A stretch of DNA of 64,000 nucleotides from Candidatus Eiseniibacteriota bacterium (GCA_041946735.1 JBHGAY010000005.1:96001-160000); one strand, 5' to 3'; numbered from the stretch's first letter, positions 17,979 through 44,166 are shown. Numbers and translations: made by a program. The notes: generated by a model from the letters alone, not told the origin.

Positions 17979-19181
17979 ATGGCGAAACGCTCGCGGCTGC
18001 TCCCCCTCCTCCCCGCGATCCTCGGGATGGTCGTCCTCCTGATCCAGACCGCGCTGCCCGGTTGCCCGACGAAGCCTGCCGTCGCCGAGGAGCCGGAGCA
18101 TCCGGCGGAGTCCCCGGAGGACGGCGCGAATCTCGAGATCCGCCCGGGCGCGGAGATCGAGTCGCTTCTCGCCGCGGCTCCCGACGGCGGCACCGTCCGC
18201 CTCGCACGCGCCCGCTACCGGCTGAGCCGCTCCCTCGAGATCCGCCGCCCGGTCCATCTCCTCGGCGAGGACGGCACGGTCCTCGAGATGCAGCCGGGCG
18301 CCTCGACGAGCCTCTTCGACGTCCGTGACGTCGACGCGCGGGAAGACGGAGGGCCGGTCGTGATCGAGAGGATGATGCTCTCCGGCAATCGCGAAGCGCA
18401 GCGAGGAGGCAGCGGCATCCTGCTGCTCTCCTGCGCCGGGTGCATCGTTCGCGACGTCACGATCCGCTCCTTCTGGCAGGACGGCCTCTACGCCTCCGAC
18501 GCCCGCGAATGTCTCTTCGAGCGGATCATTCTCGAGGACTGCGGGCGCAACGGCCTCTCGTTCGGCGAGCGGATCGTCGAGCCGGCGAGCGAAGGAAACC
18601 GCATCCTAGGGGCGGCGGCGCGCGACAACGCGAGCATCGGATTCGACGTCGAGCCGGGGATCGGCAACCGGTTCGAGGATTGCGTCGCGACGGGGAACGG
18701 GAGCTACGGCTTTTCCGTCGGGGCGGGAGCGCGCAGCCACGGCAACGCTCTCGTGCGATGCCGGGCAGAAAGGAACGGCGACCACGGCATCAATCTCTGG
18801 AGCGGGGAAAACGAGGTCCTCTCGTGCGAATCGCGCCGCAACGCGGGCGACGGGATCTCGATCGTGCTCGCGGCCGGCAACACGATCTCCGATTGCGCCG
18901 CATCCGAGAACGGCCGCCATGGGATCGGCCTGGACCGCGCCAGCGGCTCGCTCCTCCGCGCCAACCTCGCCGAATCCAACGGACGAACCGGCCTCGGCGA
19001 CGGCATCGCGCTCGTCGCCGGAACGCCGGTCTACGACAATCTCCTGACCGGCAATCTCGTGCGCGGCGACTCCCACCGCTACGCGCTGGTCGTGACGGCG
19101 AAGGTGCTTCGCACCGTCCTCGAGGGGAATAGCTTCGAAGGCCCCCTCTCCGTGGCCGCGCGCGACGTCACCTGGCGCTGA
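17979..19181 (+). CDS. Exported right-handed parallel beta-helix protein (pectin-lyase-like fold)
   Basis: Hydrophobic signal region; repeated N..(D/H)GI and C.A..N rungs. Confidence 0.85.
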   Translation: MAKRSRLLPLLPAILGMVVLLIQTALPGCPTKPAVAEEPEHPAESPEDGANLEIRPGAEIESLLAAAPDGGTVRLARARYRLSRSLEIRRPVHLLGEDGTVLEMQPGASTSLFDVRDVDAREDGGPVVIERMMLSGNREAQRGGSGILLLSCAGCIVRDVTIRSFWQDGLYASDARECLFERIILEDCGRNGLSFGERIVEPASEGNRILGAAARDNASIGFDVEPGIGNRFEDCVATGNGSYGFSVGAGARSHGNALVRCRAERNGDHGINLWSGENEVLSCESRRNAGDGISIVLAAGNTISDCAASENGRHGIGLDRASGSLLRANLAESNGRTGLGDGIALVAGTPVYDNLLTGNLVRGDSHRYALVVTAKVLRTVLEGNSFEGPLSVAARDVTWR

Positions 19182-19196
19182 CCGGGACGGCCGGGT

Positions 19197-20030
19197 CTAG
19201 ATCAGGGTTCGCTTCCACGCGCGCGCCGGTTCGCTCGACCTCGCGCTCGTCGAGATCGAGGGAGCGCGGGCCGGCCGGGGGGCGTCGGCGGAGCCGTCGG
19301 TCCGGATCTCTTCGATCGACCGATCGGGCGCGATCCGCAGGACGAGGTCGGCGGGCTGGGAGGAGGCGAGAGCCTCCATGCGGCTGCGCGTCGACAGCAG
19401 GCACGAGAGCACCCGATTCACCGATTGATGCGCGAGGACGAGCGTCGGCGCGAACGCCAGCGCGGGTGCGGGCGCGAACGCCAGCGCGGGTACGGGTGCG
19501 AGCGCGAGCGCGGGTGCGGGCACGCGCGCGGGTGCGGGCGCGAGGGTTCGCGCCAGGGCGGGCGCGAGTTCCCCGCCCGCTGTCGTCGCCTCGGCCGCGA
19601 GATCCTGCACGAGCGAATGCAGCCGCGCGACTACGTCGGCGTAGCTTTCTCCTCCGGGCCAGCGGGCATGCCACTTGTCGCGCCGCCGCTGCTCGAGCAG
19701 CTCGGGAAAGCGCGCCTCGGCCTGAGCGACCGTGCCGCCCGAGCAGAGGCCGAAGTCCATCTCGACCAACTCTGCCCGCGTTTCCACGAGGGCGCCGGTT
19801 GCCTCGGCGACAATGCGGGCCGTCGCCTGGCAGCGTCCGAGGGGAGAGGCGAGGATCCTCGAGACGCCGCAGGTGCGCGCGAAGGCGGCGAGGCGCCGCG
19901 CCTGCTCCCAGCCAAGCGGCGTGAGCGGCGCGTCGCTCCGTCCCTGCATGCGTCCGTCCCGGTTCCAACGCGTCTCGCCATGGCGGGCCAGGTAGACCTC
20001 CCCGGCGAGGGCCGCGCTCGGCGCGTTCAT
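19197..20030 (-). CDS. Histidine phosphatase (phosphoglycerate mutase family)
   Basis: LARHGET, SPLGRC..T, LVEMDFG, PGGES, second His in VLAH; ATG 20030 overlaps the neuA stop. Confidence 0.9.
   Translation of the reverse strand: MNAPSAALAGEVYLARHGETRWNRDGRMQGRSDAPLTPLGWEQARRLAAFARTCGVSRILASPLGRCQATARIVAEATGALVETRAELVEMDFGLCSGGTVAQAEARFPELLEQRRRDKWHARWPGGESYADVVARLHSLVQDLAAEATTAGGELAPALARTLAPAPARVPAPALALAPVPALAFAPAPALAFAPTLVLAHQSVNRVLSCLLSTRSRMEALASSQPADLVLRIAPDRSIEEIRTDGSADAPRPARAPSISTSARSSEPARAWKRTLI
19447..19566 (-). repeat. Degenerate ~24-bp in-frame repeat (APAPALAF-type) inserted in the phosphatase
   Basis: Protein reads LAPALARTLAPAPARVPAPALALAPVPALAFAPAPALAFAP. Confidence 0.75.
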
Positions 20031-20809
20031 CCGGCCGTCCCGCATGCGGGAGAGCTGGAGTCCGAGGCCGCGGGGGCGGAGCGTGAGGGGGAGAGCGCGA
20101 GCGAGGCGGCCGCAGGAACGCTTCGGCCCGCCGCGCTCGCGACGCGCAAGCCCCGCCAGATCGCCTCGGCGAACTCGAAGTCCTCGACAGTGTTCACGTC
20201 GACCGCCTCGATTCGCGAGAGCCGCAGCAGCCGGCATCGGTCCGGGCTCAGGCGGCGCCCGGTGGCCAGGACCGCCTCGGTGCGGTTCGCGTAGAGGCCG
20301 GTCGTCTCGTAGACGAACGGCTCCATCTCGAAGGAGTTCGGGATCGTGCCGTCCGGGTGGTAGTACGCCGGCCTCCCGGCGCTCCACAGGTAGAGCGGCT
20401 CCGCGAAGACGCCGACGACGCTGTGCGCGAGCGGGTCTTCGAGGAGCATCTCGACGGCGCGGTCGATGCTCGTGGGCGAGAGAAACGGCGAGGTCGGCAC
20501 GACCTGCACGACGATCCGCGAGTCGGCGAAGCTCTGCGCCTGCCACAGGGCGAGGTCGTCGCCGGTGGCAAGGTTCGAGGCGAGCGAGGCGGGACGGCGC
20601 AACGCCTCCGCTCCCCACTCGCAGCCGATTCGCAGGATCTCCTCCGCTTCGCTGTCGATCACGACGCGATCGACCCTGCGCGCGGCGCGCGCGTTGGCGA
20701 TCGCGTGGCAGAAGAGGGGACGGTCCCCCAGCATCCGGAGATTCTTGCCAGGGACGCGAAGGCTCGTGCCTTTCGCATGGACGACGGCGATGACCTCGCC
20801 CGCGCTCAC
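20027..20809 (-). CDS. neuA: Acylneuraminate/ulosonate cytidylyltransferase (NeuA family)
   Basis: HAKGTSLRVPGKNLR, RPASLA, PTSPF, YETTGLY, VDVNTVEDF. Confidence 0.88.
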   Translation of the reverse strand: MSAGEVIAVVHAKGTSLRVPGKNLRMLGDRPLFCHAIANARAARRVDRVVIDSEAEEILRIGCEWGAEALRRPASLASNLATGDDLALWQAQSFADSRIVVQVVPTSPFLSPTSIDRAVEMLLEDPLAHSVVGVFAEPLYLWSAGRPAYYHPDGTIPNSFEMEPFVYETTGLYANRTEAVLATGRRLSPDRCRLLRLSRIEAVDVNTVEDFEFAEAIWRGLRVASAAGRSVPAAASLALSPSRSAPAASDSSSPACGTAG

Positions 20810-21885
20810 GCCGCCTTCCGGCGTCGCACCTCACCGGCCTCCTTCGCCTGCCTGGCTTCCTTCCCCTGCTCTGCCCCTCGCGTCGCTTGCTCCGCCGCGC
20901 GCGCGGCCTGCTCCGCCGTCTGCGCCCGCGCCGGAACCGGCGCCAGCTCGACCCCCGGCTCCCGCTTCGCCTTCGCCGTCCTGCCCGCCTCGAACCGGCT
21001 GGCGTCTCCGACGTAGCGATTGCCGTAGGTCTGCTCGACGAGGAAGCTTCGTTCGACGTTCGTCATCCCGAAATGGGTGGACAAGGCTGTCTCGGGGAGG
21101 TCTTCCCACCCTTCTCCCGGCCTGCGGCCCTCGCGATCGCGCCTCACCATCTCACGGAACTCATCGGGCTCGAGCGAGCACTCGATGTGATGGACGAAGG
21201 AATGGCGGGAGAGGCAGAAGTGGCGCTCGACGATCTTGGCTCCCTGGTCGATCGCGGCGAAGGTCGGCGCGATGCCGATCTCATGGCCGCTGTAGCCGAT
21301 CGTCACCCGCGGGCCTCCGAAGCGCCGCTCGAGGGAGAGGATGTTGCCCAGGCGCAACGATTCGGGTGGGCAAGGGTATTCCGCGACGCAGTGGAGCAGC
21401 CATACCGGGTGATGGCGGAAGATCGAGAGCGAATCTTCGATCTGGTCCAGCGTCGAGCCGCCGACCGACATCACGATGGTCCGGTCGCGCGGGATGTTGC
21501 GGGCCAGCTCCTCGAGGAAGGGACGGTTCCGCGCGTTCGACGACGCGACCTTGTAGCGCTTCAGGTCGAAGTCGAGCATGAACCGCAGGCTCGGGAGATC
21601 CTGGACCGTGCAGAACCATTCGATGCCGTGCTCCCGGCACTTCGCGTCGAAGCGGCGGAAGTCCTCTTCGCAGAACTCGAAGATCGTGCGGTAGTCGCGA
21701 TAGCTCTTGCCGTAAGGGCTCGCGAACGGGGCGTCGAGCTTCTCGCGTGAATAGAACGATTCCACGTCCTTCTTCTGCATCTTGATCGCGTCGCACCCGG
21801 CCCAGGCCGCGCGCTCGACCATCCGCTGGAGAACGTTCAGGTTCCCCATGTGGTTCGTCGTGAACTCCGCCACGAATCGGGTCAT
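20806..21885 (-). CDS. neuB: PEP-dependent ulosonate synthase (NeuB/SpsE family) without a C-terminal SAF domain
   Basis: AEFTTNHMG, KMQK, KVASS, MSVGG, LHCVAEYP, GYSGHE, ERHFCL, SLEP; AAGGAGG before ATG 21885. Confidence 0.88.
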   Translation of the reverse strand: MTRFVAEFTTNHMGNLNVLQRMVERAAWAGCDAIKMQKKDVESFYSREKLDAPFASPYGKSYRDYRTIFEFCEEDFRRFDAKCREHGIEWFCTVQDLPSLRFMLDFDLKRYKVASSNARNRPFLEELARNIPRDRTIVMSVGGSTLDQIEDSLSIFRHHPVWLLHCVAEYPCPPESLRLGNILSLERRFGGPRVTIGYSGHEIGIAPTFAAIDQGAKIVERHFCLSRHSFVHHIECSLEPDEFREMVRRDREGRRPGEGWEDLPETALSTHFGMTNVERSFLVEQTYGNRYVGDASRFEAGRTAKAKREPGVELAPVPARAQTAEQAARAAEQATRGAEQGKEARQAKEAGEVRRRKAA

Positions 21886-21909
21886 CCAATCCTCCTTGGC
21901 GCGCCGGAC

Positions 21910-21981
21910 GAGCCGGGTTCTGCGCTCGAGCCGGGTTCTGCGCTCCAGCCGGGTTCCTCGCTCGAGCCGGGTTCTTCGCTC
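21910..21981. repeat. 4 x 18-bp intergenic tandem repeat
   Basis: gagccgggttctgcgctc / gagccgggttctgcgctc / cagccgggttcctcgctc / gagccgggttcttcgctc. Confidence 0.92.
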
Positions 21982-22735
21982 ACCATCGGCCGATGCGGTC
22001 GTAGAGGGACTGCACGTCGTCGGTGCCCTCCAGAGCACGCCGCACCTCGTCCTCGCGCGCGAGGCGCTGGGAGGCGAGGTAGGCCACGCGCTCCGCGAGG
22101 TCCTGCGGAACGACGATCACGCCGTCCGGGTCACCGTAGACCAGGTCGCCCGGACGGACCGGAACCGGTCCTTCGATCCCGGACAGCGCGATCGGCTGCT
22201 GGTAGTCGACGATCTGCCAGCGCCCGAAGGCGTCGATCGGCTGGGCTCCGCGGCAGAAGACGGGGAAGCGGTCCTCCTCGAGGCGCCGCGCGTCGCGCGT
22301 CCACCCATCGACGACCGCTCCGGTCGCGCCGAACTTGCGGGCCAGCCTCCCGCTGATATCGCCGAAGTGGGCTACGGACGCGTCGCCCCCCGCGTCGATC
22401 ACCTGCACGCAGCCGGGGGTGAAGGAGCGGAACATGCGGATGCGCACGGTGTCGTCGACGTGACGCTCGTCCAAGACGCGAGCGCCGGTGCAGGTGAAGG
22501 CGGGACCGAAGAGGATCGCGCCGCGTGGCAGCGACCAGAGCGGCTTGACCGCCGCATGCACGACGAACGGCCGCGGCCAGTTGAGATCGAAGCGGAGGGC
22601 GTCGTAGATCACCCCCGCGTAGAGGCCGGCGTAAGCGTCGCGCAGATCGCTCCGTTCCAGGACATCGACCGCCGGTTTCGGTTTCGGCTGTGGCTTGGAC
22701 TCCCGCCTCGATTCCGGCTCCAGAATTGGCTCCAC
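21980..22735 (-). CDS. RraA-family / HMG-CHA aldolase-like protein
   Basis: IYDAL, GPAFT, AHFGDI, GAVVDGWTRD, FPVFCRG, VRPGDLVYGDPDGVIVVP; GGAGGAGG before GTG 22735. Confidence 0.88.
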   Translation of the reverse strand: MEPILEPESRRESKPQPKPKPAVDVLERSDLRDAYAGLYAGVIYDALRFDLNWPRPFVVHAAVKPLWSLPRGAILFGPAFTCTGARVLDERHVDDTVRIRMFRSFTPGCVQVIDAGGDASVAHFGDISGRLARKFGATGAVVDGWTRDARRLEEDRFPVFCRGAQPIDAFGRWQIVDYQQPIALSGIEGPVPVRPGDLVYGDPDGVIVVPQDLAERVAYLASQRLAREDEVRRALEGTDDVQSLYDRIGRW

Positions 22736-22905: not shown

Positions 22906-24750
22906 TTACCGCCCCGCGCCCGCCCGGGCGGGATCCGAAGCCGGCGCCTGCGCCCAGCGCGGCGGAGCGTCGGGGCGGATCGGGATCGAGTCGGGGATCA
23001 CCTCGCCGCCGATGGCTTCCTTCGCCTCGCGGAGGAGCGAGCGCACCTCTTCTCCTTCGGCCGATCGGAAGGTCGCTGCGGTCAGGCCGGACATCAGCGC
23101 GCGCTCCATCCGCTGCAACGTGCGGCGTTGCGCCTCGACCTCCTTGCGCGCCGGCCGCCGCCGGCCTCCCGGATCGCGGATCTTCTCGATCCAGGCGCGC
23201 ATCTCAGCCCTCGCCGAGTCCGGATCGAGGGGCAGGACGTCGAACCGTCCCGGCGCGCTGCGATACTCGTGATCGAACTCCTGGGACCACGCATAGCGCC
23301 AGGGACCGGGCTCCTCCGGATGGAAGCGAATCGTCCAGCGGTAATCGCCCTCGTAGCTCGCGAGCAGATCCCATCTTCGTCCGCTGGGCGACTGGAACGT
23401 CCAACGCACCTTCTGCTTCTCGGGAGCCGCGGTCCGGATCCAGGTGTCGCGCAGCTCCGCTTCGAAATCGCCGCCGAGCGGAATGGGATCGACGGCGGCG
23501 AGGATGCGCGCCTGCAAGCGGCGCGCTCCGGCGCAATCCCACAGCGGCTCGCGATGCCAGGCGGTGGCCCTGGCGCTGGTGGCGGTGGCGGCGAGGTCGG
23601 CCGCCATCGTTTCGCCACCTGCCGTCCGTATCTCGACGGTCGCGCGCGGCGAGCCGGGGTCGGGAAGCCACGTGCAGGCGATGCGCGCCGCGCCCGCCGC
23701 GAGATCGAGTTCCGGCAGGGCGAGCACGCGTCCCGGTTCCAGCCGCACCGCCTGCTCGATGCGAGCCACCTCGCCGGGCGCCTCCCATTCCAGCTCGAGT
23801 CGCGGGCGCCGGGCCACGTTGCGAGAGTCCCCCTCGTTGGCCGAATAGAGGGTGACGACACTGCCCGGCGTGTCTTCCTCGACGTCCCCGACCTTCAACA
23901 GGAAGAGGAGCGGACGGCCGGCCGCGATCCGGCGCGTTGCGCAGGACGCGAGCCCGGCGGAGTCGAAGATGACCCGCGAAGCGCCGGGGACGTACACCGC
24001 GTCCGCGAGCGGCATCGCGCCGGTGTCGGCCTGCCGATCGGTGTCAGAGGCGTAGCCCGCGCCGGGAAGGGCCCAGGCCTCCTCGCCGAAGGCGGCGTCG
24101 TTCCACCACACCTCGCCGGGGCGTGGGGGGCTCACGTTGTCTCCGAGCGTCCCGCCGCCGCCCGTTCGATAGTCCCTCTTCATCTCATAGAGAACGAGGC
24201 GCACGCTGTCGGCCGGGCCGCTCTCGACGCCGATCGTGAGCGTCCCGCGCGTTACGATCGCCCCCGGCGGCAGCTCGATCCCCTCCCAGCGCTGCACGAC
24301 GCGGAACAGCTCGTACTCCCCGTACGCTTCGCTCCCGTCGCGGCGCCCGACCCGCACGTGCACCTGTCGCGCCTGGTTCCACGCATGCTTGTACGTTCCG
24401 TCGAGGAACCCTCGCAGATCGTTGTCTTCCATCCCGGAATAGGTAGGGCCGTCGACGAATGTGAAAACGTGGCGCTGCGAGAGGACGCTCCTCGCGCCGC
24501 CTCGGGCGTCGCCGGCTCCGCCGGCGAAAGCGGAGACGCGAAGCGTCCCGGAGAAGGGGGCGGACAGCGCCACGTCGGAGCGAAACGGTTCGATCTCCAT
24601 CCGGCGAAGCAGGCGGCGGCCGGCGAGGAAGGCGCCGCCGGCGAGCGCGAGCGCAAGCGCGAGAAGCGCGAGGGCGAGAAGCGGGCGACGGATGGGGAGC
24701 AAGCGGTTTCGGCCCGGTCTGCCGCCGGGCGCGCGAGCCGTGACGGACAA
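22906..24750 (-). CDS. Membrane-anchored protein with a DNRLRE-like domain and a DUF5060-like domain
   Basis: N-terminal TM; LPPGAIVTRGTLTI...W..PGA...YSANE...RPRLELEW; then FQSPSG...YEGD..WTIRFHPEEPGPWRY; TTG start after GAGGAGG (inferred). Confidence 0.65.
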   Translation of the reverse strand: MSVTARAPGGRPGRNRLLPIRRPLLALALLALALALAGGAFLAGRRLLRRMEIEPFRSDVALSAPFSGTLRVSAFAGGAGDARGGARSVLSQRHVFTFVDGPTYSGMEDNDLRGFLDGTYKHAWNQARQVHVRVGRRDGSEAYGEYELFRVVQRWEGIELPPGAIVTRGTLTIGVESGPADSVRLVLYEMKRDYRTGGGGTLGDNVSPPRPGEVWWNDAAFGEEAWALPGAGYASDTDRQADTGAMPLADAVYVPGASRVIFDSAGLASCATRRIAAGRPLLFLLKVGDVEEDTPGSVVTLYSANEGDSRNVARRPRLELEWEAPGEVARIEQAVRLEPGRVLALPELDLAAGAARIACTWLPDPGSPRATVEIRTAGGETMAADLAATATSARATAWHREPLWDCAGARRLQARILAAVDPIPLGGDFEAELRDTWIRTAAPEKQKVRWTFQSPSGRRWDLLASYEGDYRWTIRFHPEEPGPWRYAWSQEFDHEYRSAPGRFDVLPLDPDSARAEMRAWIEKIRDPGGRRRPARKEVEAQRRTLQRMERALMSGLTAATFRSAEGEEVRSLLREAKEAIGGEVIPDSIPIRPDAPPRWAQAPASDPARAGAGR

Positions 24751-27431: not shown

Positions 27432-28628
27432 ATGCAGCAATCGCAGCGGCAGGCATCCCAGGTGCGTACCGGACTCGACGTCGTCCTGCGCGATGGGATC
27501 GGCCTTCCCGGCGAAGGCCGGGCGGGACTGTTGTGCAATAGCGCGGCCACCGACCGGCTCCTGCGCGCGACCCCGCAGGCGCTCGCGCAGGTCCGCGGCC
27601 TCCGGCTCATCAGGATCTTCTCGCCGCAGCACGGATTCGCCGGCGAGAAGCAGGACAACATGGTCGAGTCGCCCGACGCGACGCACGAGCCGACCAGCTT
27701 GCCGATCGTGAGCCTCTACGGCCGCGTCCGCCGGCCGGAACCGGCGATGCTCGACGACCTTGACGCAGTGATCGTCGATCTTCCCGACGTCGGCACGCGC
27801 GTCTACACGTTCCTGACGACCGCTCTCTACATGCTCCGCGCGTGCGCCGAAGCGGGCGTGGCGGTGATCGTCCTCGACCGGCCCAATCCGATCGGAGGCG
27901 ATGCTGTCGAAGGCCCCATGCTCGAGGCCGGTTTCACCTCGTTCGTCGGGGAGATCCCGATCCCGCTGCGCCATGGCCTGACGCCGGGCGAGTTTCTCCG
28001 CCTCGGCGCGCGGGCGCTCGATCTCGAGCCGGCGCTCGATCTCACCGTCATCCCGATGGAGGGATGGCGCCGCGACCTCTGGTTCGACGAAACGGGGCTG
28101 ACCTGGGTCATGCCCTCTCCGAACCTTCCGACCCTCGAGAGCACCGTCGTCTACCCGGGCCAGGTGCTGCTCGAGGGCACGACCCTCTCCGAAGGGCGCG
28201 GGACGACCCGGCCGTTCGAGCTTTGGGGCGCCCCGTGGCTCGACACGCGGGCGGTCGCCAACGCGATCGGCCCGCTGGAGGGCTGCCTGCTGCGCGAGGT
28301 CGCCTTCGAGCCGACCTTCCAGAAGCACGCGGGGCAGTTGGTGCGCGGCTTCCAGATCCACGTGACGGACCGCGACCGCTATCGCCCGGTGCGCACCACC
28401 GTCGCGCTCCTCGCCGCCGTGCGCTCGATCCATCCGGAAAGGAAGCTCTGGCGCGAGCCGCCCTACGAGTACGAGACGAAGCGGATGCCGATCGACCTCA
28501 TCAGCGGGAGCGATCGGCTGCGGGCGGCGATCGACGCCGGCGCTTCCGTCGACGACATCGCCGGCCGTTGGGACGAGCAGGTCGCGGCGTTCCGCGAGCG
28601 GCGGCAGGGCTTCCTCCTCTACGAATGA
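27432..28628 (+). CDS. namZ: Exo-beta-N-acetylmuramidase NamZ family (DUF1343)
   Basis: VRTGLD, FSPQHGF, SLYG, DLPDVGTRVYTF, LDRPNPIGG, RHGLT.GE, PSPNLP, EGTTLSEGRGTTRPFE; GGAGGTGA SD. Confidence 0.92.
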   Translation: MQQSQRQASQVRTGLDVVLRDGIGLPGEGRAGLLCNSAATDRLLRATPQALAQVRGLRLIRIFSPQHGFAGEKQDNMVESPDATHEPTSLPIVSLYGRVRRPEPAMLDDLDAVIVDLPDVGTRVYTFLTTALYMLRACAEAGVAVIVLDRPNPIGGDAVEGPMLEAGFTSFVGEIPIPLRHGLTPGEFLRLGARALDLEPALDLTVIPMEGWRRDLWFDETGLTWVMPSPNLPTLESTVVYPGQVLLEGTTLSEGRGTTRPFELWGAPWLDTRAVANAIGPLEGCLLREVAFEPTFQKHAGQLVRGFQIHVTDRDRYRPVRTTVALLAAVRSIHPERKLWREPPYEYETKRMPIDLISGSDRLRAAIDAGASVDDIAGRWDEQVAAFRERRQGFLLYE

Positions 28629-30673
28629 GCGAAGAACGGCCAGGAAGGAGCGAAGAACGGCCAGGAAGGAGCGAAGCCGGGCTGCCCCGCTCCGCTCCGG
28701 CGCTCGACCGCCACGGCGCGCCCCTCCGCGCGATCGTGCTCGCCGCGGGATTCGGCACGCGGATGCTCCCGCTCACACGCACGATGCCGAAGGCGCTCCT
28801 CCCGGTCGCCGGCCGGCCGCTGCTCGAATGGACGCTGCGCCTCCTCGCCCGTTCCGGCATCGACGAGGCCGTCGTGAACGCTCACCATCATGCCGCGGCG
28901 ATCCGCGGCTGGATCGAGCAACGGCGCGGCGATCCGCGGCTCCCCCGCGTGGACGTCGTCGTCGAGGAGCCGGAGATCCTCGGTTCGGCGGGCGGCATCG
29001 CAAACGCCGCCGCTCTCGGGCTGCTGCAGTCCGACCCGATCGTCGTCGCGAACTCCGACCAGATCCTCCGCGTCGATCTCCGCGCGGTCCTCGCCCGGCA
29101 CCTGGAGCGCGGGGCGATCGCGACGCTCGTCTGCTCTCCGCATCCGCTGCTGCGCCAGGTCCGAGTCGCCGGCGAGCGCGTGACGGAGATCCTTCCCTAT
29201 CCGATGCCGACCGGCCAGTCGCTCTACAGCTTCACCGGGATCTGGCTCCTCGCGCGCGAAGGGCTCGAGGAGCTGCCCCGTGGCCGCTTCGAGGAGATCG
29301 GACCGCACTGGCGGCGATGGGTTGCGGCCGATCGCGTCGCGGCCGTCGTCGTGAAGGATGCGCCGTTCCGGGAAGCGGGGACCCCCGAGGCCTGGCTCGA
29401 GGTCGAGCGCGCCGTCGGCCGGCTTCGCGAGGAGCCGCCGGCGATCGAGGAATCGATCGTCCTGCCCGGAGCGAGCGTCGCTCCGGGAGCGCGCGTGCGT
29501 CGCTCGATCCTCGGTCCGGACGCCGTCCTGTCGGCGGGCGAGCAATGCTACCGGCGGATCGTGGCGGCCGGCGAGTCGCGCGCGCTGCGCGTGCTTTCGC
29601 GCGACGAAGAGGAGGCGCTGCGTGCGGTGCTCGAACGGTCGCGGGGGAAGCTGCCGGTCGTCGCGCGAACGCCGGCGTTCGGGATCCGCCTGCTCGCCGG
29701 GGACGGATCGAACCGGCGCTTCGCGCGCCTGCTCTTCGAGCGCGGGAGCCTGGTCGCCATCTTGAATCCACCGGGGGGGGCGCCGCCGGCTTCGGTCTAT
29801 CCGCATCGCGAGACCGCGGGCGGTCCCGACGAGAACGACAGCTACCTCTACGTGCAGCGGTTCCTCGCCGCGCGAGGCGTGCGCGTGCCGGCGATCCATG
29901 CGTTCGATCGCGAGAGCGGGACGATCCTGCTCGAGGATCTCGGCGATCGCCTACTGCTCGAGGAGATCCAAGGCCGGGACGAGGAGGCGCTGAAGGCACA
30001 CTACCGGCAAGCGCTCGAGATGCTCGAGCGGATGCAGGCGCCGGCGCCGCCGGCGTTCGACGCGGCGCAGACGTGGAACGTCGCGTACGACGAGGCGTTC
30101 GTGCTGCGCTTCGAGGCCGGGTATTTCCATCGGGAAATGGTCGAGTCGATCGCGGGACTCGCCGTCCCGTTCTCCGAGATGGAGGGGATCTACCGGCGCA
30201 TCGCGCAGCGGTCGCTGGCAGGCGCTCCGCGGGTCGCGATGCACCGCGATTTCCAGTCCCGCAACCTGATGATCGTCGAAGGCGGTCTCGCCCTTCTCGA
30301 CTTGCAGGGGATGCGTCTCGGGCCGCCGGAGTACGACCTCGCCTCGCTCCTCCTCGATCCGTATGCCGATCTGCCGGCGCGGCTGCGCGAGGAGCTGCTC
30401 GAGGAGGCGATCGCCGCGAGCGCGGGGCGGATCGATCGCGGCCGGTTCGTCGCTTCGGGGATCGACCGGATGATGCAGGCGCTCGGCGCCTACGCGTATC
30501 TAGGCGGGCGTCTCGGCAAGCCGGGATTCCTCGAGCACGCGCCGGTCGCGCTGCGGCGCCTGCGGGAGCTGGCCGAGGAGGCGTCGCTCCCGGAGATGGC
30601 GGGACTGGCCGACCGCGTCACCGAGGCGCTCACGCGCCGCGCGCACCGGGAGCACCGCGCCGAGCCGGCTTAG
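28625..30673 (+). CDS. Fusion of sugar-1-phosphate nucleotidyltransferase (MurU-like) and anomeric sugar kinase (AmgK-like)
   Basis: N-half LAAGFGTRM.PLT...PKAL, GSAGGI, NSD; C-half LAGDGSNRRF.R, LEDLGD, HRDFQSRNLM, LDLQG..GP.EYDLASLL.D; ATGA overlap with namZ. Confidence 0.85.
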   Translation: MSEERPGRSEERPGRSEAGLPRSAPALDRHGAPLRAIVLAAGFGTRMLPLTRTMPKALLPVAGRPLLEWTLRLLARSGIDEAVVNAHHHAAAIRGWIEQRRGDPRLPRVDVVVEEPEILGSAGGIANAAALGLLQSDPIVVANSDQILRVDLRAVLARHLERGAIATLVCSPHPLLRQVRVAGERVTEILPYPMPTGQSLYSFTGIWLLAREGLEELPRGRFEEIGPHWRRWVAADRVAAVVVKDAPFREAGTPEAWLEVERAVGRLREEPPAIEESIVLPGASVAPGARVRRSILGPDAVLSAGEQCYRRIVAAGESRALRVLSRDEEEALRAVLERSRGKLPVVARTPAFGIRLLAGDGSNRRFARLLFERGSLVAILNPPGGAPPASVYPHRETAGGPDENDSYLYVQRFLAARGVRVPAIHAFDRESGTILLEDLGDRLLLEEIQGRDEEALKAHYRQALEMLERMQAPAPPAFDAAQTWNVAYDEAFVLRFEAGYFHREMVESIAGLAVPFSEMEGIYRRIAQRSLAGAPRVAMHRDFQSRNLMIVEGGLALLDLQGMRLGPPEYDLASLLLDPYADLPARLREELLEEAIAASAGRIDRGRFVASGIDRMMQALGAYAYLGGRLGKPGFLEHAPVALRRLRELAEEASLPEMAGLADRVTEALTRRAHREHRAEPA

Positions 30674-33154: not shown

Positions 33155-35026
33155 GTGCCCGGCCGCTCCTCGCGCCTGCGCCGTCTTCCGTCCGGGCTGC
33201 TGCCCGCCGTGCTCGCGCTCTCGCTGCTCGTGCTCGGCGCGCTCGCCCTCCGGCTCTGGGGGATCCGCTACGGGCTGCCCCACGTCTATCACACCGATGA
33301 GATCTTCGAGGTGAAGCGGGCGCTGAAGCTGGGGGCGGGGCAGTTCGACTTCCACCGTGCGTTCAAGGGGGGGCTCTACTACCTTCTCTTCATGGAGTAC
33401 GCGGTCTACTACGCGTGGCTCCGTCTCGGCGGCTCGATCCGCTCGAGCTACGACTTCCTCGTACTGTTCTTCCGCGATCCGACCGGATTCTGGATGATCG
33501 GGCGCTCCACGGTCGCGGTCATCGGCGCTGCGACGGCCGTCCCCGTGTTCCTTCTCGCGCGCCGCCTCGCCGGGCGGACGATCGCGGGGATCGCCGCCGC
33601 GCTCTTCCTCGCGATGAGCTTCGATCACGTCTGGTCGTCGCACTTCACGACGGTCGACGTGCCGATGGTGGCGCTGCTCGCGGTCGCGTTCCTCTTCCTC
33701 GAGCGGGCGGCTCACGAGAACGGAATGCGCGCGATCCTCGTCGCCTCGATCTTCGCGGCCTTGGCGACCGCCACGAAGCTCCCGGCGATCGTCTCCCTCG
33801 TGCCGCTGGCGATCGTCTCGCTCGCGCGGCCCGCGGCCGTTTCGCTCGCGCGGCCGGCCACGCGGCCGGCGGCCGTTTCGCGCCTGCGCCGGCTCGCCCT
33901 GGCGGCGCTCGTCTTCGCGGTCGTGACGGCGATCGTCAACCCGGGTTTCTATCCGGAGATCCTGCGTCTCGCCGGCAGCCGGCTCGGCCTCGCCACGCCC
34001 CCGCCGCAGCCGCCCGACGATCCCTATCCCTTGCGGACCGAGAACGTGTGGATCTACTACCTCGTCTCGATCGTGCATTCACTCGGGCTCCCGATCGTCG
34101 CGCTCTCCGCCGGCGGGGCGGTCCTCGCAATTCGCCGGCGGACGATGATCGACGTCTCGCTCCTCGCCTTCGCCGTGGCGCTCTATCTCTTCGTCTGTCT
34201 GCCCTGGTCGGAGGACTTGATCTATCCGCGCTACACGCTGCCGATCCAGCTCGTGCTCGTTCTCTTCGCCGGATGGTTCGTGTCGTGGCTGCTCCAATGG
34301 AGCTTCCTCGTTCGCCGGCAGAAACTCGCCGCCCCCGCCGCGGCCGTCTTGCTGGGGCTCGTCGCGCTTCCGCCGGCGATCGCCTCTCTGCGCTACGACG
34401 CGGGGGCGAGCCGTCCCGATAGCCGGACCATCGCGCGGCAGTGGATCGTGGAGCACCTTCCGCCCGAGTCGCGAATCCTGATCGAGGGCCGTGGCTATCA
34501 GACCTCCACCGGGACGGTCCCGCTCGTCAACCGTCCGGAGAACATCGAAGCCCTCGTCGCACGCTTTCGGTCTGCGGATGCGCGATGGAGCGGGAAAGCG
34601 GCCGGCGGGGGAGAGGACTCCGGCTCCGCCGGCTACGGCGCCGGCCCCGGTTCCGGCTCCGACTCCTACGCTCCGCTCAAGGATCGATTCCACCGGGCCG
34701 CCGTCGACGCTGCCGCCTCGACCCGGAGCTTCGACCTGATCCTCTTCGGCACCGAGACGCTTTCCTACCGGCGCCTGTCGGAGTACATCGAAGACGGAGC
34801 CGACTACGTCGTGATCGAAAAGGACCGGATGGAGAAGATGCGCGAGCCGGGCAACGCGGCTCGCTTCCCCGAAGCCGCCCGCTTTTATGAGGATGTCGCG
34901 AGCAACGGCGATCTCGAGCTTATGCGGGAGTTCGTGCCATCTGCCGGCGGTCTGGGCCCCGTGCTTCGGCTCTACCAGGTGCTGCGCGGGGACCCCGACG
35001 GCGCCGGATCACCAGGCCGCCGGTAG
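33155..35026 (+). CDS. GT-C fold glycosyltransferase (ArnT/PMT family)
   Basis: LRLWGI.YGLP...HTDE, SHFTTVDVP, ATATKLP, PRYTLP, DSRT.A..WI; multi-TM with a C-terminal soluble domain. Confidence 0.85.
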   Translation: MPGRSSRLRRLPSGLLPAVLALSLLVLGALALRLWGIRYGLPHVYHTDEIFEVKRALKLGAGQFDFHRAFKGGLYYLLFMEYAVYYAWLRLGGSIRSSYDFLVLFFRDPTGFWMIGRSTVAVIGAATAVPVFLLARRLAGRTIAGIAAALFLAMSFDHVWSSHFTTVDVPMVALLAVAFLFLERAAHENGMRAILVASIFAALATATKLPAIVSLVPLAIVSLARPAAVSLARPATRPAAVSRLRRLALAALVFAVVTAIVNPGFYPEILRLAGSRLGLATPPPQPPDDPYPLRTENVWIYYLVSIVHSLGLPIVALSAGGAVLAIRRRTMIDVSLLAFAVALYLFVCLPWSEDLIYPRYTLPIQLVLVLFAGWFVSWLLQWSFLVRRQKLAAPAAAVLLGLVALPPAIASLRYDAGASRPDSRTIARQWIVEHLPPESRILIEGRGYQTSTGTVPLVNRPENIEALVARFRSADARWSGKAAGGGEDSGSAGYGAGPGSGSDSYAPLKDRFHRAAVDAAASTRSFDLILFGTETLSYRRLSEYIEDGADYVVIEKDRMEKMREPGNAARFPEAARFYEDVASNGDLELMREFVPSAGGLGPVLRLYQVLRGDPDGAGSPGRR

Positions 35027-35030
35027 CCCT

Positions 35031-35837
35031 TCAACCGCGACGATCCGCGCGAACGATGACCGGCGAGCCGAAGCGGGCGAGCAGCCCCACCGCCCGTCCC
35101 GGCCTCTCGAGCAGGCGCCCGATCGCCGCCGATCCGTGCATCCGGTGGAAGACCATCGGCAGGACGAACTGCGGTCGCGCCTCCCGCACCTGGTAGCCGT
35201 GGGCGTCGAGCATCCGCTCGATCGCGGCCGGCGAGAAGACCCGGTACGGCCGCGTGTTCCCCTCGATCCTCCTCTTCACCGGGAATGTCTCCCTCGCGAT
35301 CCGATTGAAGCTGCGAGACGACGGATAGTCGAAGAGGACGGAGCGGCGGGCGACGCGGCACAACTCGCCGAGCAGCCGTTCCGGGTCGGAGACGTGGGGA
35401 AGGAGGCGGAAGCAGAGGACGGCGTCGAAGCTCCGCGATTCGTGCGGAAGCTCGCAGAGCGAGCCGGTCTCGAAGGAGACCCGCCCATCCGCGAGAAACG
35501 GCGTCAGGCGGCGCGCAGCTTCCGGCCGGCTCCCGAGGACGAGGAGGCGATGGCCGGCGTGCAGCAGCGCGGGCGCAAGCTGCGCATGTCCGCCCCCCAC
35601 GTCGAGCAGGAGGCCACCGGGCGGGAGGTCCGCGAGCAACGCGAGCGCCGACTGCGCCTGCCTGTCGAGGAACCACGCGCCGGCAGACCCGCGGAACCGC
35701 GCGGCGTAGGCGTCGGAAGCGGTGAACACGTCCGCCTCCTCGCAGTCGGATCCGATGCCGGCGCCGGCTCCGGCTCCGGCATTCGCGGCGGCGGCGACCG
35801 TCGCCGCCGGATCCCGCTCATGCCCGGGCCGGCTCAT
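35031..35837 (-). CDS. Class I SAM-dependent methyltransferase
   Basis: LLDVGGGH, LPHESRSFDAVLCFRLLPHV, ELCRVAR. Confidence 0.85.
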   Translation of the reverse strand: MSRPGHERDPAATVAAAANAGAGAGAGIGSDCEEADVFTASDAYAARFRGSAGAWFLDRQAQSALALLADLPPGGLLLDVGGGHAQLAPALLHAGHRLLVLGSRPEAARRLTPFLADGRVSFETGSLCELPHESRSFDAVLCFRLLPHVSDPERLLGELCRVARRSVLFDYPSSRSFNRIARETFPVKRRIEGNTRPYRVFSPAAIERMLDAHGYQVREARPQFVLPMVFHRMHGSAAIGRLLERPGRAVGLLARFGSPVIVRADRRG

Positions 35838-37794
35838 GCCTCGCCTCCCGCTCGCTCGCGCGCTCGATCCATTCGATGACGCTCTCGATCCCTTCCCCCT
35901 CGAGATGGAGCCGGTGCCAGACCTCGAGGTTGAGGAGCACCCAGAGCCGGTAGTTGTGGTCCCGGCGCCCGCCCGTATGCTCGTCGACCAGCTCGCGTAG
36001 CGCTTCGCGCCGGAAGATCCCTTCCTCGACCATCCGCGAGGAACGGACCATCTCGCGCAACAGCTCTGCGAGCTCTTCGCGCATCCACCGCGCGAGAGGG
36101 AATCCGAACCCCTGCTTCGGGCGGTCGACGAGCGCCGCATCGAGATGCCGGGCGGCGATCCGGCGGAGCGCGTATTTGAGCGTGCGGCCGCGCAGCTTGA
36201 GGCGGCTCGGCACGCGGCACGCGAACTCGACCATCCGGTGCTCGAGCAGCGGCGGGCGCACCTCGAGGCCGTGAGCCATCGACATCCGGTCGACGATCGC
36301 GAGCAGGTGATCCGGCATGCGGGTCGAGAGATCGGTGTAGAGCATCCGCTCGATTTCGTCGCATCCGGTCGCGCCGTCGAAGTGCTCCAGGATCTTCGCG
36401 CGCGAATCGAGCGCGCCGATGCGTCCGAGCGCGTCGCCGGTGAAGAGACGGCGCTTCGCCGCTTCGGTGAAGCGCAGCCACGAGAGGCTTTCCGCGTAGC
36501 GCTCCCCCTCGCTCAGCAGCGACATCTCGTTCACCCAGCGGAGCCGGTGCGACAGCCCCTTGTAGCCGTAGCTCTCCGGGACCAGGTCGATCATCTTCCG
36601 CAGGACGGTCCTGCGTACCGGCGCAGGGACGACGCGCAGCCGGTCCGCCAGCCGGTTGCCGGAGAAGCGATCGTAGCCCGCGAAGAGCTCGTCCCCTCCG
36701 TCGCCGGAGAGGACGACCTTCACGTGCCGCGCCGCGAGACGCGAAGCGAGGTAGACGCCGGCCGCGAACGGGTCGGACGGCTCGTCCATGTGCCAGACCA
36801 TGCGCGGCACCAGGTGGACCAGGTCCGCGCTCACGACCTCCTCGTGGTGATCGGTGCCGTAGCGGGCCGCCACGAGCCGCGCGTAGGGAAGCTCGTCGAA
36901 CTCCTCCTCGCGCACGCCGATCGAGAAGGTCGGGAACGGTCTGCGCGAGGCGGACTCCGTCGCCGCGAGCGCGGTGATCAGGCTCGAGTCGATCCCCCCA
37001 CTCAAGAAGGCGCCGACCGGAACGTCGGCGAGCAGGTGCGCGCGCACCGTCTCGCGCAGCCGCTCCTCGAGGCGATCGAGGATTTCTTCGTCGGTCCCTT
37101 CGAGTCGCGGCCCGAAGGCGAGCTTCCAGTACCGGGTGATCCGGGTCGTGCCGTCACGCTCGCGGACGAGGAGATGCCCGGCCGGCAGCTTCGCGATGCC
37201 GGAGAAGAGGGTCAGGCGGTCGGGGATCGTCCGTAGCGAGACGTAGTGATAGAGCGCTTCGAGATCGACGCGCGGCGCGTGCAGCCCGGTCGCGAGGATC
37301 GCTTTGACTTCCGACGCGAAGATGAAGCAGGGCGCGCCGCCCGCCGTCGTCTCGAGATGGAACAGCGGCTTCTGCCCCATCGGGTCGCGCGCGAGGAGCA
37401 GCCTCCCGCGCGGTTCGTCCCAGATTGCGAAGGCGAACATTCCGTCGAGTCGCTCCACGCATCGCTCGCCCATCTTGTCGTACAGGTGCAGGAGGACTTC
37501 CGCCTCGGATCGAGTCCGGAACGGGTAGCCCTCGCGCGAGAGCTCCTCGCGCAGGTCGTGGAAGTTGTAGATCTCGCCGTTGAAGACGATCGCCCGCCGC
37601 TTCTCGGGGTCGACGATCGGCTGCCGTCCGGTTTCGAGATCGAGGATGCTCAGGCGCCGGTGGCCGAGGACGGCGCCGGGGAACTCCGCCCGCCCCTCGT
37701 CGTCGGGTCCGCGATGGGCGATCGCGTCAAGGGCGCGCGGGAGCCGCTCCCGGACGGAGGGGTCGGTCGAAAGGATTCCCGCGATTCCGCACAT
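35818..37794 (-). CDS. asnB: Asparagine synthase-like amidotransferase (glutamine-hydrolysing)
   Basis: MCGIAG, HRGPD, RRLSILD, FNGEIYN, LSGGIDSS, LSGDGGDELFAGY, DRMSMAHGLEVR, RPKQGF. Confidence 0.95.
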   Translation of the reverse strand: MCGIAGILSTDPSVRERLPRALDAIAHRGPDDEGRAEFPGAVLGHRRLSILDLETGRQPIVDPEKRRAIVFNGEIYNFHDLREELSREGYPFRTRSEAEVLLHLYDKMGERCVERLDGMFAFAIWDEPRGRLLLARDPMGQKPLFHLETTAGGAPCFIFASEVKAILATGLHAPRVDLEALYHYVSLRTIPDRLTLFSGIAKLPAGHLLVRERDGTTRITRYWKLAFGPRLEGTDEEILDRLEERLRETVRAHLLADVPVGAFLSGGIDSSLITALAATESASRRPFPTFSIGVREEEFDELPYARLVAARYGTDHHEEVVSADLVHLVPRMVWHMDEPSDPFAAGVYLASRLAARHVKVVLSGDGGDELFAGYDRFSGNRLADRLRVVPAPVRRTVLRKMIDLVPESYGYKGLSHRLRWVNEMSLLSEGERYAESLSWLRFTEAAKRRLFTGDALGRIGALDSRAKILEHFDGATGCDEIERMLYTDLSTRMPDHLLAIVDRMSMAHGLEVRPPLLEHRMVEFACRVPSRLKLRGRTLKYALRRIAARHLDAALVDRPKQGFGFPLARWMREELAELLREMVRSSRMVEEGIFRREALRELVDEHTGGRRDHNYRLWVLLNLEVWHRLHLEGEGIESVIEWIERASEREARHEPARA

Positions 37795-37835
37795 TCTTCC
37801 GCTCCCTCGCTTCGCCTTGCTGCCGCCGCGCTTCG

Positions 37836-38819
37836 CTAGAGGAGCCGGCGCTCCCGATACCAGGCCGCGGTCCGCCGCAGCCCCTCGTCGAGCTCGATCT
37901 TCGGATCGTACCCCAGCTCCGCGACCGCCCGGCCGATGTCGAACGCGCGGTTCTGGCGGTACCAGTCGACGCGTCGCGGAAAGATCGGGGGCGTTACTCC
38001 GAACGGGCGGCAGACGGCCGCGACGACGTGCCCCGCGACGATGAGTGGCGCGAGCGGATACCGGGGGAGCCGCACGTCGACCTCGAGCGCCGCCGCCACC
38101 TTCCGCACGATCTCCTCGATCGTGTAGTAGCGCCGGTCGGCGATCAGGTAGGTCCGCCCGTCGCCGCGCCCCGGCTCCTGCACGAGCAGGAACGCGTCGA
38201 CGAGATTGTCGATGTAGAGGGGATGGTAGAACGTCCGGCACGATCCGAAGAGCGGGAAGCTGCCGCGCGCGACGCGCCGGAAGATCATGTAGAAGCGCTC
38301 CGGATCGCCCGGGCCGTAGATCGCCGCCGGTCGCAGGATCGTCGTCCGCATGCCACGCGCCGCATGCTCCTGCACGATCGGCTCCGCGAGATACTTCGTC
38401 CGCTGGTAGTAGTCGGCCGGCGCGATCGGCGCGTCCTCGTTCGCCGGCGGATCCGCGACGTCCCCGTGGACCCCGCAGGTGCTGCAGTAGACGAACTTCT
38501 CGACCCCTTCGCGCGCGGCCTCTTCGAGAACGTTGCGCGTTCCCTCGACGTTCACCGCTGCGTAGTGCGCCTCGGGGACGTTCATCTCCCGGAAGGCGGC
38601 GGCGAGGTGGTGTACGATCCGGGCGCCGCGCATCGCCTCCCGGACCGCGATCGGATCGGTGACCGATCCGAGGACGATGCGAGCCCCGCGCGCGCGCAGC
38701 GAATCGCTCGCCAACCCCTCTTTGTTGTCGAGCGCCGTGACCTCGTGCCCCTCGTCCAGAAGGCGGCGGACGAGCGCGGCCCCGGTGAACCCGGTCCCCC
38801 CCGTGACCAGGATCTTCAA
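37836..38819 (-). CDS. NAD-dependent epimerase/dehydratase (extended SDR)
   Basis: LVTGGTGFTG, HLAA, NVEGT, ST, YQRTK, RP..IYGPGD; TTG start after GGAGG. Confidence 0.9.
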   Translation of the reverse strand: MKILVTGGTGFTGAALVRRLLDEGHEVTALDNKEGLASDSLRARGARIVLGSVTDPIAVREAMRGARIVHHLAAAFREMNVPEAHYAAVNVEGTRNVLEEAAREGVEKFVYCSTCGVHGDVADPPANEDAPIAPADYYQRTKYLAEPIVQEHAARGMRTTILRPAAIYGPGDPERFYMIFRRVARGSFPLFGSCRTFYHPLYIDNLVDAFLLVQEPGRGDGRTYLIADRRYYTIEEIVRKVAAALEVDVRLPRYPLAPLIVAGHVVAAVCRPFGVTPPIFPRRVDWYRQNRAFDIGRAVAELGYDPKIELDEGLRRTAAWYRERRLL

Positions 38820-38922
38820 GGCGACCTCCCCTCCCTGCGAACCGGCGCTCCGCGGGGCCCGCTTACGGGCCGGGCGCGCTCCGCCGCGCCTGCGCCCGTG
38901 CCCGGGCCCGCGCCCGCGCACG

Positions 38923-38953
38923 GCGTTGCGACCGCACGACGGTATCGCAACGC
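38923..38953. promoter_or_regulatory. Inverted repeat GCGTTGCGA-N13-TCGCAACGC in a divergent intergenic region
   Basis: Perfect 9-bp arms; 13/14 nt shared with 16416-16429. Confidence 0.35.
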
Positions 38954-40963: not shown

Positions 40964-40980
40964 TCCAGCACGTCGGGTAC

Positions 40981-44158: not shown

Positions 44159-44166
44159 GGCGGGCG

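Follow-up and report, generated by a model that had tools for sequence, protein, structure and literature searches.

The locus analysed here raises the question of which sugar is made when NeuB and NeuA, the synthase and the cytidine monophosphate (CMP)-transferase of the sialic acid type, are encoded together with an RraA-like protein and a histidine phosphatase. The locus belongs to a 64,000-nucleotide stretch of DNA, hereafter the window, from Candidatus Eiseniibacteriota bacterium (GCA_041946735.1 JBHGAY010000005.1:96001-160000). The original prediction placed an atypical ulosonic acid operon at positions 19197..22735, and four open reading frames (ORFs), all on the minus strand, were found there: the RraA-like gene (22735-21980, GTG start, 251 aa; PF03737, 83 bits), the NeuB gene (21885-20806, 359 aa; PF03102, 182 bits), the NeuA-like gene (20809-20027, 260 aa; PF02348, 66 bits) and the histidine phosphatase gene (20030-19197, 277 aa; PF00300, 145 bits). 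The predicted co-orientation and the overlap of three genes at their stop/start codons were confirmed, GTGA being common to NeuB and NeuA and ATGA to NeuA and the phosphatase. All four proteins pass the Pfam cut-offs (RraA-like, NeuB, CTP_transf_3, His_Phos_1), and none of them reaches an NCBIfam equivalog cut-off. The four genes are a conserved, mobile module; as judged from sequence comparisons, this module is a real, widespread and undescribed variant of CMP-ulosonate biosynthesis with a putative extra enolate-chemistry step, its product being a predicted one and the structure of its sugar probably not yet described.

The protein search yielded 764 NeuB relatives, the best 120 having 58-100% identity. 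Loci were fetched by NeuB-alignment motifs, with 31 coming from genomes, 80 being the best among 93 viral stretches and 80 the best among 110 from metagenomes; with two plasmid loci and the window added, the 194 loci were reduced to 150 at 95% identity, 95 belonging to the clade of the window NeuB and 55 being more distant. Locus counts were limited to loci with at least 1.7 kb on both flanks (50 clade and 50 distant loci; the rest were dropped); the distant set consists almost wholly of viral contigs, and the loci are related, so the counts are not independent. Within the clade, RraA was found in 40/50 loci, NeuA in 50/50, the histidine phosphatase in 36/50 and all four genes in 26/50; RraA accompanied a distant NeuB in 5/50 loci, every one of them in a single viral sister group. 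The original prediction hinged on conservation of RraA beside NeuB homologues, and the neighbourhood survey bears out this conservation for the clade. The histidine phosphatase, supposed to stand in place of the haloacid dehalogenase (HAD) phosphatase of the 2-keto-3-deoxynononic acid (KDN) route, is present in all 25 clade loci from cellular genomes with sufficient flank; the 14 clade loci without it are seven viral-collection and seven metagenome contigs, several with phage genes.

The association also holds at the genome level. The module RraA (>300 bits) occurs in 5 of the 206 genomes of the window's phylum, the same five carry a clade NeuB (one of them cut by a contig end), and the two genes are adjacent every time; four further genomes of the phylum with distant NeuBs contain no module RraA. 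The genome of the window itself (4.89 Mb, 94.8% complete) encodes one NeuB, one RraA-like protein and one NeuA of the module type, and neither RraA nor NeuB was found in the five other genomes of its family, which points to horizontal spread. NeuB lay beside RraA in 8/8 viral loci found via an RraA alignment, on contigs already in the locus set. The grouping of the genes is far beyond chance. Host records include Myxococcota, Ca. Eisenbacteria, Geminicoccaceae, Eilatimonas, Pelagibacteraceae, Prochlorococcus, Gastranaerophilales and Bacillota, and there is a cultured carrier, Eilatimonas milleporae DSM 25217 (L028); annotated phage (50,697 records) and plasmid (72,556 records) collections contained no clade NeuB (best identities 32% and 38%, respectively) and no module RraA. 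Viral contigs L042-L050, L054, L071, L073, L076 and L080 combine RraA-NeuB-NeuA with GT29-like or Maf-like transferases, methyltransferases and a sulfotransferase, and in L048 a phage portal gene adjoins the module, which suggests phage-encoded glycosylation.

The window NeuB has the TIM-barrel fold in common with Neisseria-type NeuB, and its phosphoenolpyruvate (PEP)/metal residues E7, K35, Q37, T93, K112, S115, S140, Y170, S199, H201, E220 and H222 align with E25, K53, Q55, T110, K129, S132, S154, Y186, S213, H215, E234 and H236 of Neisseria SiaC (2WQP); the roles of these residues are partly those given in PMC8208679 and partly general knowledge. No SAF-domain match was found, R314 is absent, and Neisseria D247, N184, E134 and F112 are replaced by His, Ala, Asn and Gln. 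The clade is characterised by T9-T10, R66, Q95, N117, A168, H232-H233, E235 and a clade-specific C-terminal FGM..E..FL..Y segment; T9-T10, R66, Q95 and H232-H233 contrast with G-I, K, W/F and S-D in 49 distant NeuBs, 48 of which carry a G-S-D motif where the clade has V-H-H. The window NeuB scores 170.5 bits against the NeuB equivalog cut-off of 399.65 and 127.3 against the PseI cut-off of 340.25. Support for the clade is 99 (SH-aLRT) and 87/80 once more divergent representatives are added. SAF-less NeuBs are common among environmental bacteria (PMC8208679), and the accessible part of PMC12654856 holds nothing on the pocket residues. A role of this NeuB as a KdsA replacement was considered and dropped, a KdsA-like gene (305 bits, cut-off 314) being located near KdsB on contig C13. 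In L041:7992-8890 and L035:7992-8887, NeuB is split by an apparent frameshift, which may be a sequencing error.

The RraA-like protein contains the motifs AHFGDI and DGWTRD, and 20 residues separate D126 from R147-D148, a pattern which we take to be a D-X20-R-D motif. A profile alignment equates D126, R147, D148 and E228 with D102, R123, D124 and E199 of the HMG/CHA aldolase 3NOJ (HMG, 4-hydroxy-4-methyl-2-oxoglutarate; CHA, 4-carboxy-4-hydroxy-2-oxoadipate), so the metal ligands and the pyruvate-binding Arg of the HMG/CHA aldolase (LigK/PcmE) type are all present, in line with the earlier comparison of the protein with class II pyruvate aldolases. The alignment with 3NOJ has a five-residue gap at the loop of Lys147, which in the HMG/CHA aldolase binds the C4 carboxylate. 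In a 47-sequence alignment, the catalytic R, D and E residues are invariant and D126 is kept in at least 90%; together with R232 and the conserved YxG..YD, AHFGD, PxD..GRW and C-terminal GRW motifs, these residues mark a module-specific RraA subfamily. Like the HMG/CHA aldolase (LigK/GalC), the module RraA has the fold and the four equivalent residues, but it stands in a biosynthetic glycan context and not in aromatic catabolism, has its own invariant pocket and the C-terminal GRW, and misses the HMG/CHA aldolase equivalogs (52.4 vs 304.5 bits for TIGR02798; 57.2 vs 179 for NF006731). The RNase E regulator RraA equivalog is missed as well (42.5 vs 136 bits; 251 aa vs about 160 residues). The predicted structure (pLDDT 96.5) is closest to 5IR2, 3K4I, 2C5Q (yeast YER010C) and 3NOJ (TM 0.78, 23% identity for the last), and RNase E regulator structures rank under such long aldolase-like forms; 5IR2 was dropped as a functional lead, since it is described as a cellulase with an unknown active site (10.1101/516542). 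Most homologues bearing motifs of this kind are probably class II pyruvate aldolases, and the products of HMG/CHA aldolases, made from pyruvate and a 2-oxo acid, are 4-hydroxy-4-carboxy-2-oxo acids (PMC5065237). No longer, fused RraA forms were seen among 8000 candidates scored, which is weak evidence, and none of the 150 nearest NeuB representatives contained an RraA domain; the NeuB + RraA complex prediction scored 0.00 and was used neither for nor against binding. A stand-alone RraA sister family of Geminicoccaceae-family genomes (L204-L208, L216-L218, L241) has Glu at the position of the first metal ligand.

The window NeuA keeps the cytidine triphosphate (CTP)-binding residues K21, N22 and R71 and also D209 of Neisseria NeuA (as K22, N23, R72 and D204), but in the alignment to 1EYR the pocket of CMP-N-acetylneuraminic acid (Neu5Ac) synthetase formed by R165, Q104, D211 and F192 is not kept: N158-S159 replaces P164-R165, G83 replaces S82, V104 replaces Q104, R186 replaces F192 and N206 replaces D211. 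The HMMER alignment is one residue off in the Arg165 loop, and Arg is found at neither adjacent position. In the Neisseria enzyme, the C1 carboxylate is bound by R165, and the R165A variant has no activity; Ser82 touches the sugar, and D211 is a metal ligand (PMC2901514); the Ser of that loop, numbered 81 or 82 depending on the paper, contacts O4 (PMC6580227). The phosphatase belongs to branch 1 of the histidine phosphatases, with the RHG motif (R16-H17-G18), the second Arg (R66), the acid Glu (E90) and the second His (H201) all present and an Ala/Pro repeat insertion (repeat D1) ahead of the second His; 50 of its 51 relatives carry an RHG/RHA motif. These motif residues have established functional roles in histidine phosphatases. 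Sugar phosphatases have been called functionally redundant (PMC6200933). Among the variants observed, the module NeuA is fused to a second cytidylyltransferase domain in Gastranaerophilales (L035:9473-10864; L029:3195-4577, the latter judged by ORF length). We presume this second domain to be KdsB-like. The Oscillospiraceae locus L036:4177-11422 contains four NeuA-like genes, an HMGL-like (DmpG-type) aldolase gene, RraA, NeuB, a histidine phosphatase and a HAD phosphatase, and may make several ulosonates.

The module as a whole resembles Neisseria NeuB/NeuA, PseI/PseF and LegI/LegF in the TIM-barrel, the PEP/metal residues and the CTP-binding region of NeuA, but differs from them in having no SAF domain or R314, in falling below the equivalog cut-offs, in the lost NeuA residues listed above and in the lack of amino-sugar supply genes. 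As predicted, no members of the NeuC, Pse and Leg families were found among the scanned ORFs of the window, which are those up to about 49.6 kb, save two short ones near 32 kb, and one ORF beyond; two PF02350 epimerases, which may be of the NeuC or the WecB type, lie on other contigs of the genome.

The place of RraA in the order of steps can be approached through the loci that lack it. RraA is missing in 10/50 clade loci (12/67 when loci with sufficient upstream DNA are counted), and it was lost in at least three lineages, namely L032, L038 with L168, and L170 and L183 with Geminicoccaceae. In 13 RraA-less NeuBs, T9, T10, R66, Q95, N117, G143 and H232 are kept in 13/13 and H233 in the 12/12 sequences reaching it. 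The NeuAs, by contrast, change: in RraA-bearing loci with a usable NeuA, Asn occupies the first position of the Arg motif in 60/60, followed by Ser, Gly, Thr or Ala, and these RraA-type NeuAs have Gly or Ala at the Ser82 position and mostly Asn at the Asp211 position, whereas the NeuAs of the RraA-less loci L032, L038, L168, L170 and L183 come from other branches and have the Arg, as well as Asp at the D211 position. In locus L036, RraA is accompanied by the two NeuA types, encoded next to each other. The unchanged NeuB site in the absence of RraA and the three swaps of NeuA make it most likely that RraA comes after NeuB and alters the sugar, an order of steps that we consider fairly probable on this pattern of residues. 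The simplest reading is that the NeuB product would not depend on RraA, while NeuA would meet a different sugar when RraA is present.

A pathway consistent with this order can be proposed. The substrates of NeuB would be PEP and a short aldose phosphate supplied by central metabolism, with a triose phosphate as the most likely candidate, and their condensation would give a 3-deoxy-hexulosonate phosphate. The RraA-fold enzyme would then add the pyruvate enolate to the C2 ketone, in a reversal of the HMG/CHA aldolase reaction, and the product would be a 4-C-carboxy-3,5-dideoxy ulosonate, with an eight-carbon backbone if the acceptor has six carbons and with a possible pyranose ring; formation of this ring and CMP-activation could pull the addition forward. 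The histidine phosphatase would take off the terminal phosphate, and NeuA with its remodelled sugar pocket would form the CMP-sugar, to be moved by CMP-ulosonate transferases of several families, here most likely by a KpsS/GT99-like protein encoded on contig C8 of the same genome. That the module makes one CMP-activated ulosonic acid via NeuB, pyruvate addition by RraA, phosphatase and NeuA is a tentative proposal, somewhat short of an even chance, and the same applies to the claim, taken separately, that pyruvate addition is the way in which RraA changes the product. The complete tandem-aldol route, in which a triose-phosphate NeuB and a synthetic RraA would lead to a branched dicarboxylic ulosonate CMP-activated by a specialised NeuA, and which would have spread horizontally among Myxococcota, Eisenbacteria, Pelagibacter, Prochlorococcus, Melainabacteria, Bacillota and phages, is slightly more doubtful.

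A number of points weigh against this scheme. Nine Geminicoccaceae-type loci (seven with sufficient flank) keep the Asn-type NeuA with no RraA ortholog alongside. The best RraA matches elsewhere in 7/8 such Geminicoccaceae genomes belong to a sister family near 140 bits, which is found in 31/81 Geminicoccaceae-family genomes, 25 of these without a clade NeuB; possibly, the RraA function is supplied in trans there. Support for the monophyly of the module RraAs relative to this sister family is 43. No NeuB adjoins the Geminicoccaceae sister RraA, as judged by ORF starts without a family scan, and some of these neighbouring ORF starts are presumably tetronate-catabolism-like. The Asn at the Arg-motif column of NeuA also appears in 9/42 outgroup NeuAs; the 60/60 NeuA loci are related and do not represent 60 independent cases, the independent swaps numbering three, and RraA is not strictly required, as the ten clade loci without it demonstrate. 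As to the chemistry, thermodynamics often disfavour aldol additions to ketones, and a dicarboxylic product would be expected to gain a binding Arg in NeuA, not to lose one. Moreover, FlDet, a member of the RraA family, is a dehydratase/decarboxylase and not an aldolase (PMC8563752).

The last point leads to another reading, in which RraA acts after NeuB and adds no carbon: it would enolise the ulosonate and then invert C4 by retro-aldol/aldol chemistry or eliminate the C4 hydroxyl, and the product, an ulosonate that is epimeric, 4-deoxy or anhydro, would require a NeuA of its own. This case accounts equally well for the NeuA swaps and for a NeuB site that stays unchanged, no additional Arg for a second carboxylate is required, and RraA-type NeuAs have Gly or Ala at the Ser82 position, which lies near O4; FlDet, an RraA-family metal enzyme likened to the module RraA by description and not by sequence, dehydrates and decarboxylates 2-keto-3-deoxy-glucarate, a 2-keto-3-deoxy sugar acid, but it is catabolic and inactive on KDG (2-keto-3-deoxygluconate) and KDPG (2-keto-3-deoxy-6-phosphogluconate) (PMC8563752). 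On the other hand, no reductase that would complete the dehydration route is conserved in the loci, and the divergent NeuB could itself set the C4 stereochemistry; this reading appears rather unlikely. RraA could also work upstream, making a carbonyl acceptor for NeuB, e.g., a 4-hydroxy-2-oxo acid or its cleavage product. It is almost always the gene directly ahead of NeuB, the His-His, Arg and Glu gained in the NeuB site could bind an acidic acceptor, and an altered acceptor would alter the NeuA substrate too. Acceptor supply was one of the two roles suggested in the original prediction, and it is disfavoured by the 13 RraA-less sequences with their unchanged NeuB site, among them those of G005 and G010, genomes of unstated completeness without an RraA-like match at E<=0.001; in addition, pyruvate aldolases yield ketones while known NeuB enzymes take aldehydes, and the phosphatase would still require a phosphorylated acceptor. 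We hold acceptor supply to be improbable; the covariation of NeuA agrees with the other suggested role, in which RraA builds a sugar that is branched or extended.

It would be equally improbable for RraA to be a helper that cleaves excess or wrong-isomer product to pyruvate and an aldose, decarboxylates oxaloacetate or regulates NeuB by binding to it, while the other three proteins make a simple short-chain ulosonate. The absence of RraA in a fifth of the clade loci and the Geminicoccaceae that keep the same NeuA type without it would agree with such a role, as would the direction in which class II pyruvate aldolases mostly run, which is cleavage (PMC5065237); however, the viral-collection loci of the clade all keep RraA though most drop the phosphatase, the three NeuA swaps following RraA loss are not predicted by it, and the RraA catalytic residues and subfamily-specific pocket are invariant or nearly so. 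Finally, the locus might encode a KDN (or Neu5Ac) pathway of the ordinary kind, in which the phosphatase has been exchanged and RraA is a passenger. The KDN routes of Bacteroides (BT1714) and Prymnesium parvum share with the module the layout of a PEP-dependent NeuB-type synthase, a phosphatase and a CMP-transferase, with phosphorylated intermediates (PMC6200933), and NeuBs without the SAF domain are frequent in environmental bacteria (PMC8208679). Nevertheless, the module has a histidine and not a HAD phosphatase, an extra RraA-fold enzyme and no SAF domain; its aldose site and the sugar pocket of its CMP-transferase are rebuilt, NeuB differing at D247, N184, E134 and F112 and lacking R314, in a comparison that excludes characterised KDN-9-phosphate synthases, and NeuA differing at the R165, Q104 and D211 positions; and RraA and NeuB co-occur when tested from both directions. 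The KDN framing finds no support, both the synthase and the CMP-transferase departing from the Neu/KDN types at substrate-binding positions, and an ordinary pathway is very hard to credit.

A neighbouring NeuB family offers a hint on the acceptor of NeuB. A profile search of the whole library revealed NeuBs of about 500 residues with an extra N-terminal domain that has no Pfam match. We take this domain to contain a sialyltransferase/Maf-like motif, and the family is termed GT-fused below. One branch (99/97) unites this family with the RraA clade and the viral sister group in a tree of 86 hand-chosen rows with a midpoint root (LG+G4); in a quick tree, the sole GT-fused row had a long branch and was placed with the outgroup. 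GT-fused NeuBs occur in 15/5426 E. coli genomes. In E. coli CU532-9 (L253:12319-16030), the GT-fused NeuB is accompanied by a cytidylyltransferase, an O-acetyltransferase and an inositol-monophosphatase-family gene within a capsule locus that is group 3-like and contains rfbBDAC. The genes ahead of rfbB number eleven, as many as K3_5 to K3_15 in the same position in the supplement of PMC13171606, and the internal identities (51.2, 41.9 and 25%) are close to those given there for K3 (51.2, 41.7 and 23.9%); for K3_8 to K3_11, the accessible part of that supplement lists no counterpart in the related K145. The K3 polysaccharide is a rhamnan branched with a hexulosonic acid (bioRxiv 2025.01.29.635457), and the product of the E. 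coli locus is probably the K3 deoxy-hexulosonic acid. If the match is right, a six-carbon product means that the supergroup uses a three-carbon acceptor.

This argument has its own counterweights: the match to K3 rests on the pattern of genes and not on a typed strain, and the E. coli GT-fused NeuB is 35% identical to the window NeuB, with H-F/D instead of H-H. NeuB chemistry gives 3-deoxy products, so a 4-deoxy sugar is not directly reached. The title of the 1988 structure paper, as cited in PMC10433991, calls the K3 sugar 4-deoxy-2-hexulosonic acid. The K3-matching locus resembles the module in the NeuB supergroup and in having a synthase, a phosphatase and a CMP-transferase, but it contains no RraA, its NeuB is fused to a transferase-like domain, and its phosphatase and NeuA are of other kinds; no characterisation of its enzymes was found in the literature examined. 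An Enterobacter plasmid (L203:3927-6837) carries a GT-fused NeuB whose NeuB domain is 94% identical to the E. coli one, an inositol-monophosphatase-family gene and a NeuA that groups (100/99) with the NeuAs of the RraA-less loci L032, L038 and L168, the E. coli NeuA being on another branch.

The original prediction set the module beside a Wzx/Wzy locus. The two do share a neighbourhood, but two plus-strand genes lie between them, one encoding a beta-helix protein (17979-19181) and the other, ending at 17913, a GT4/MraY-like protein. The adjoining Wzx/Wzy locus has genes for GT2 and GT4-type proteins and for methyltransferases, and no CMP-sugar transferase could be recognised in it; a link between it and the module was rejected as unsupported, the usual partner transferase being on contig C8. 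In 14 related loci and in 3/4 other phylum carriers, a gene for a 600-residue KpsS/GT99-like protein converges on the phosphatase gene. Its ortholog in the genome of the window is on C8 (61138-63066; Pfam Capsule_synth, 29.8 bits; structural neighbours KpsS/LipB and GT99), and this protein is probably the module partner, as the synteny in relatives suggests. Transferases in other module loci are GT29-like, MptE/Maf-like, GT38/52-like and GT99. The C8 gene lies about 16 kb from a flagellar cluster, whose genes bear names that we assigned from familiar motifs; the cluster also has an ortholog of a HAD-domain gene located upstream of the module in three loci. Flagellin and FlbT of the same genome were not matched by anything in the related loci, which leaves the window's own genome and one locus as the basis of the flagellar link, and delivery of the module sugar to a flagellar glycan is a weak guess. 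Between flagellin-like genes of C8 (G000:C8:113667-117754; L243:13667-17754), there are genes of an 850-aa protein without a Pfam match and of a TPR protein, possibly flagellin glycosylation genes; orthologs of the 850-aa protein region are upstream of the module in L016, L020 and L040, and relatives of this protein match HAD.

Other features of the window concern the module DNA and its surroundings. RraA lies 94 bp upstream of NeuB, and the gap is occupied by four 18-bp direct repeats (21909..21980, repeat family D4); in close relatives, the two genes are almost contiguous, without a repeat-filled gap. The sequence GGAGGAGG lies directly upstream of the RraA GTG start; no promoter was found, and one plus-strand terminator-like site is at chance level. 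These repeats, the Ala/Pro repeat of the phosphatase (19423-19560) and an Ala/Glu/Lys-rich tail of NeuB (20806-20950) are low-complexity expansions not seen in close relatives, and neighbouring genes hold similar repeats. The beta-helix repeat protein, which looks secreted, converges on the end of the module and was not found when tested for in related loci; a weak DUF5060 protein (22906-24702) precedes the module and does not occur in related loci either. At 27462-30673, a NamZ exo-muramidase adjoins a nucleotidyltransferase-phosphotransferase fusion, presumably resembling a MurU/AmgK peptidoglycan recycling unit. A second glycosylation region (33155-48257) comprises a PMT-like transferase, an asparagine-synthase-like amidotransferase, an epimerase, a carbamoyltransferase, GT4, GT2s and a flippase-like gene.

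No description of an RraA gene with NeuB was found in the literature searched, a search that left most subscription papers outside; SugarBase records undescribed higher-carbon CMP-ulosonates in Magnetospirillum, and its accessible part mentions neither RraA nor an aldolase. The pair NeuB + NeuA is routinely read as making sialic acid, and the clade is present in 31 genome loci and on many marine and phage contigs. The clade probably makes something else, so the sialic acid annotations in Pelagibacter, Prochlorococcus and phages would be wrong. The module points to an ulosonic acid that has either two carboxylates or a C4 that differs from the usual one. A tandem-aldol route to a new class of surface sugar is conceivable, though the odds are against it. 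If the K3 match is true, there would be a candidate synthase for the K3 hexulosonic acid, and the K3 sugar would be assigned to a NeuB; if the proposal for the module is true, the large RraA-like family would acquire a biosynthetic role, in a four-enzyme module.

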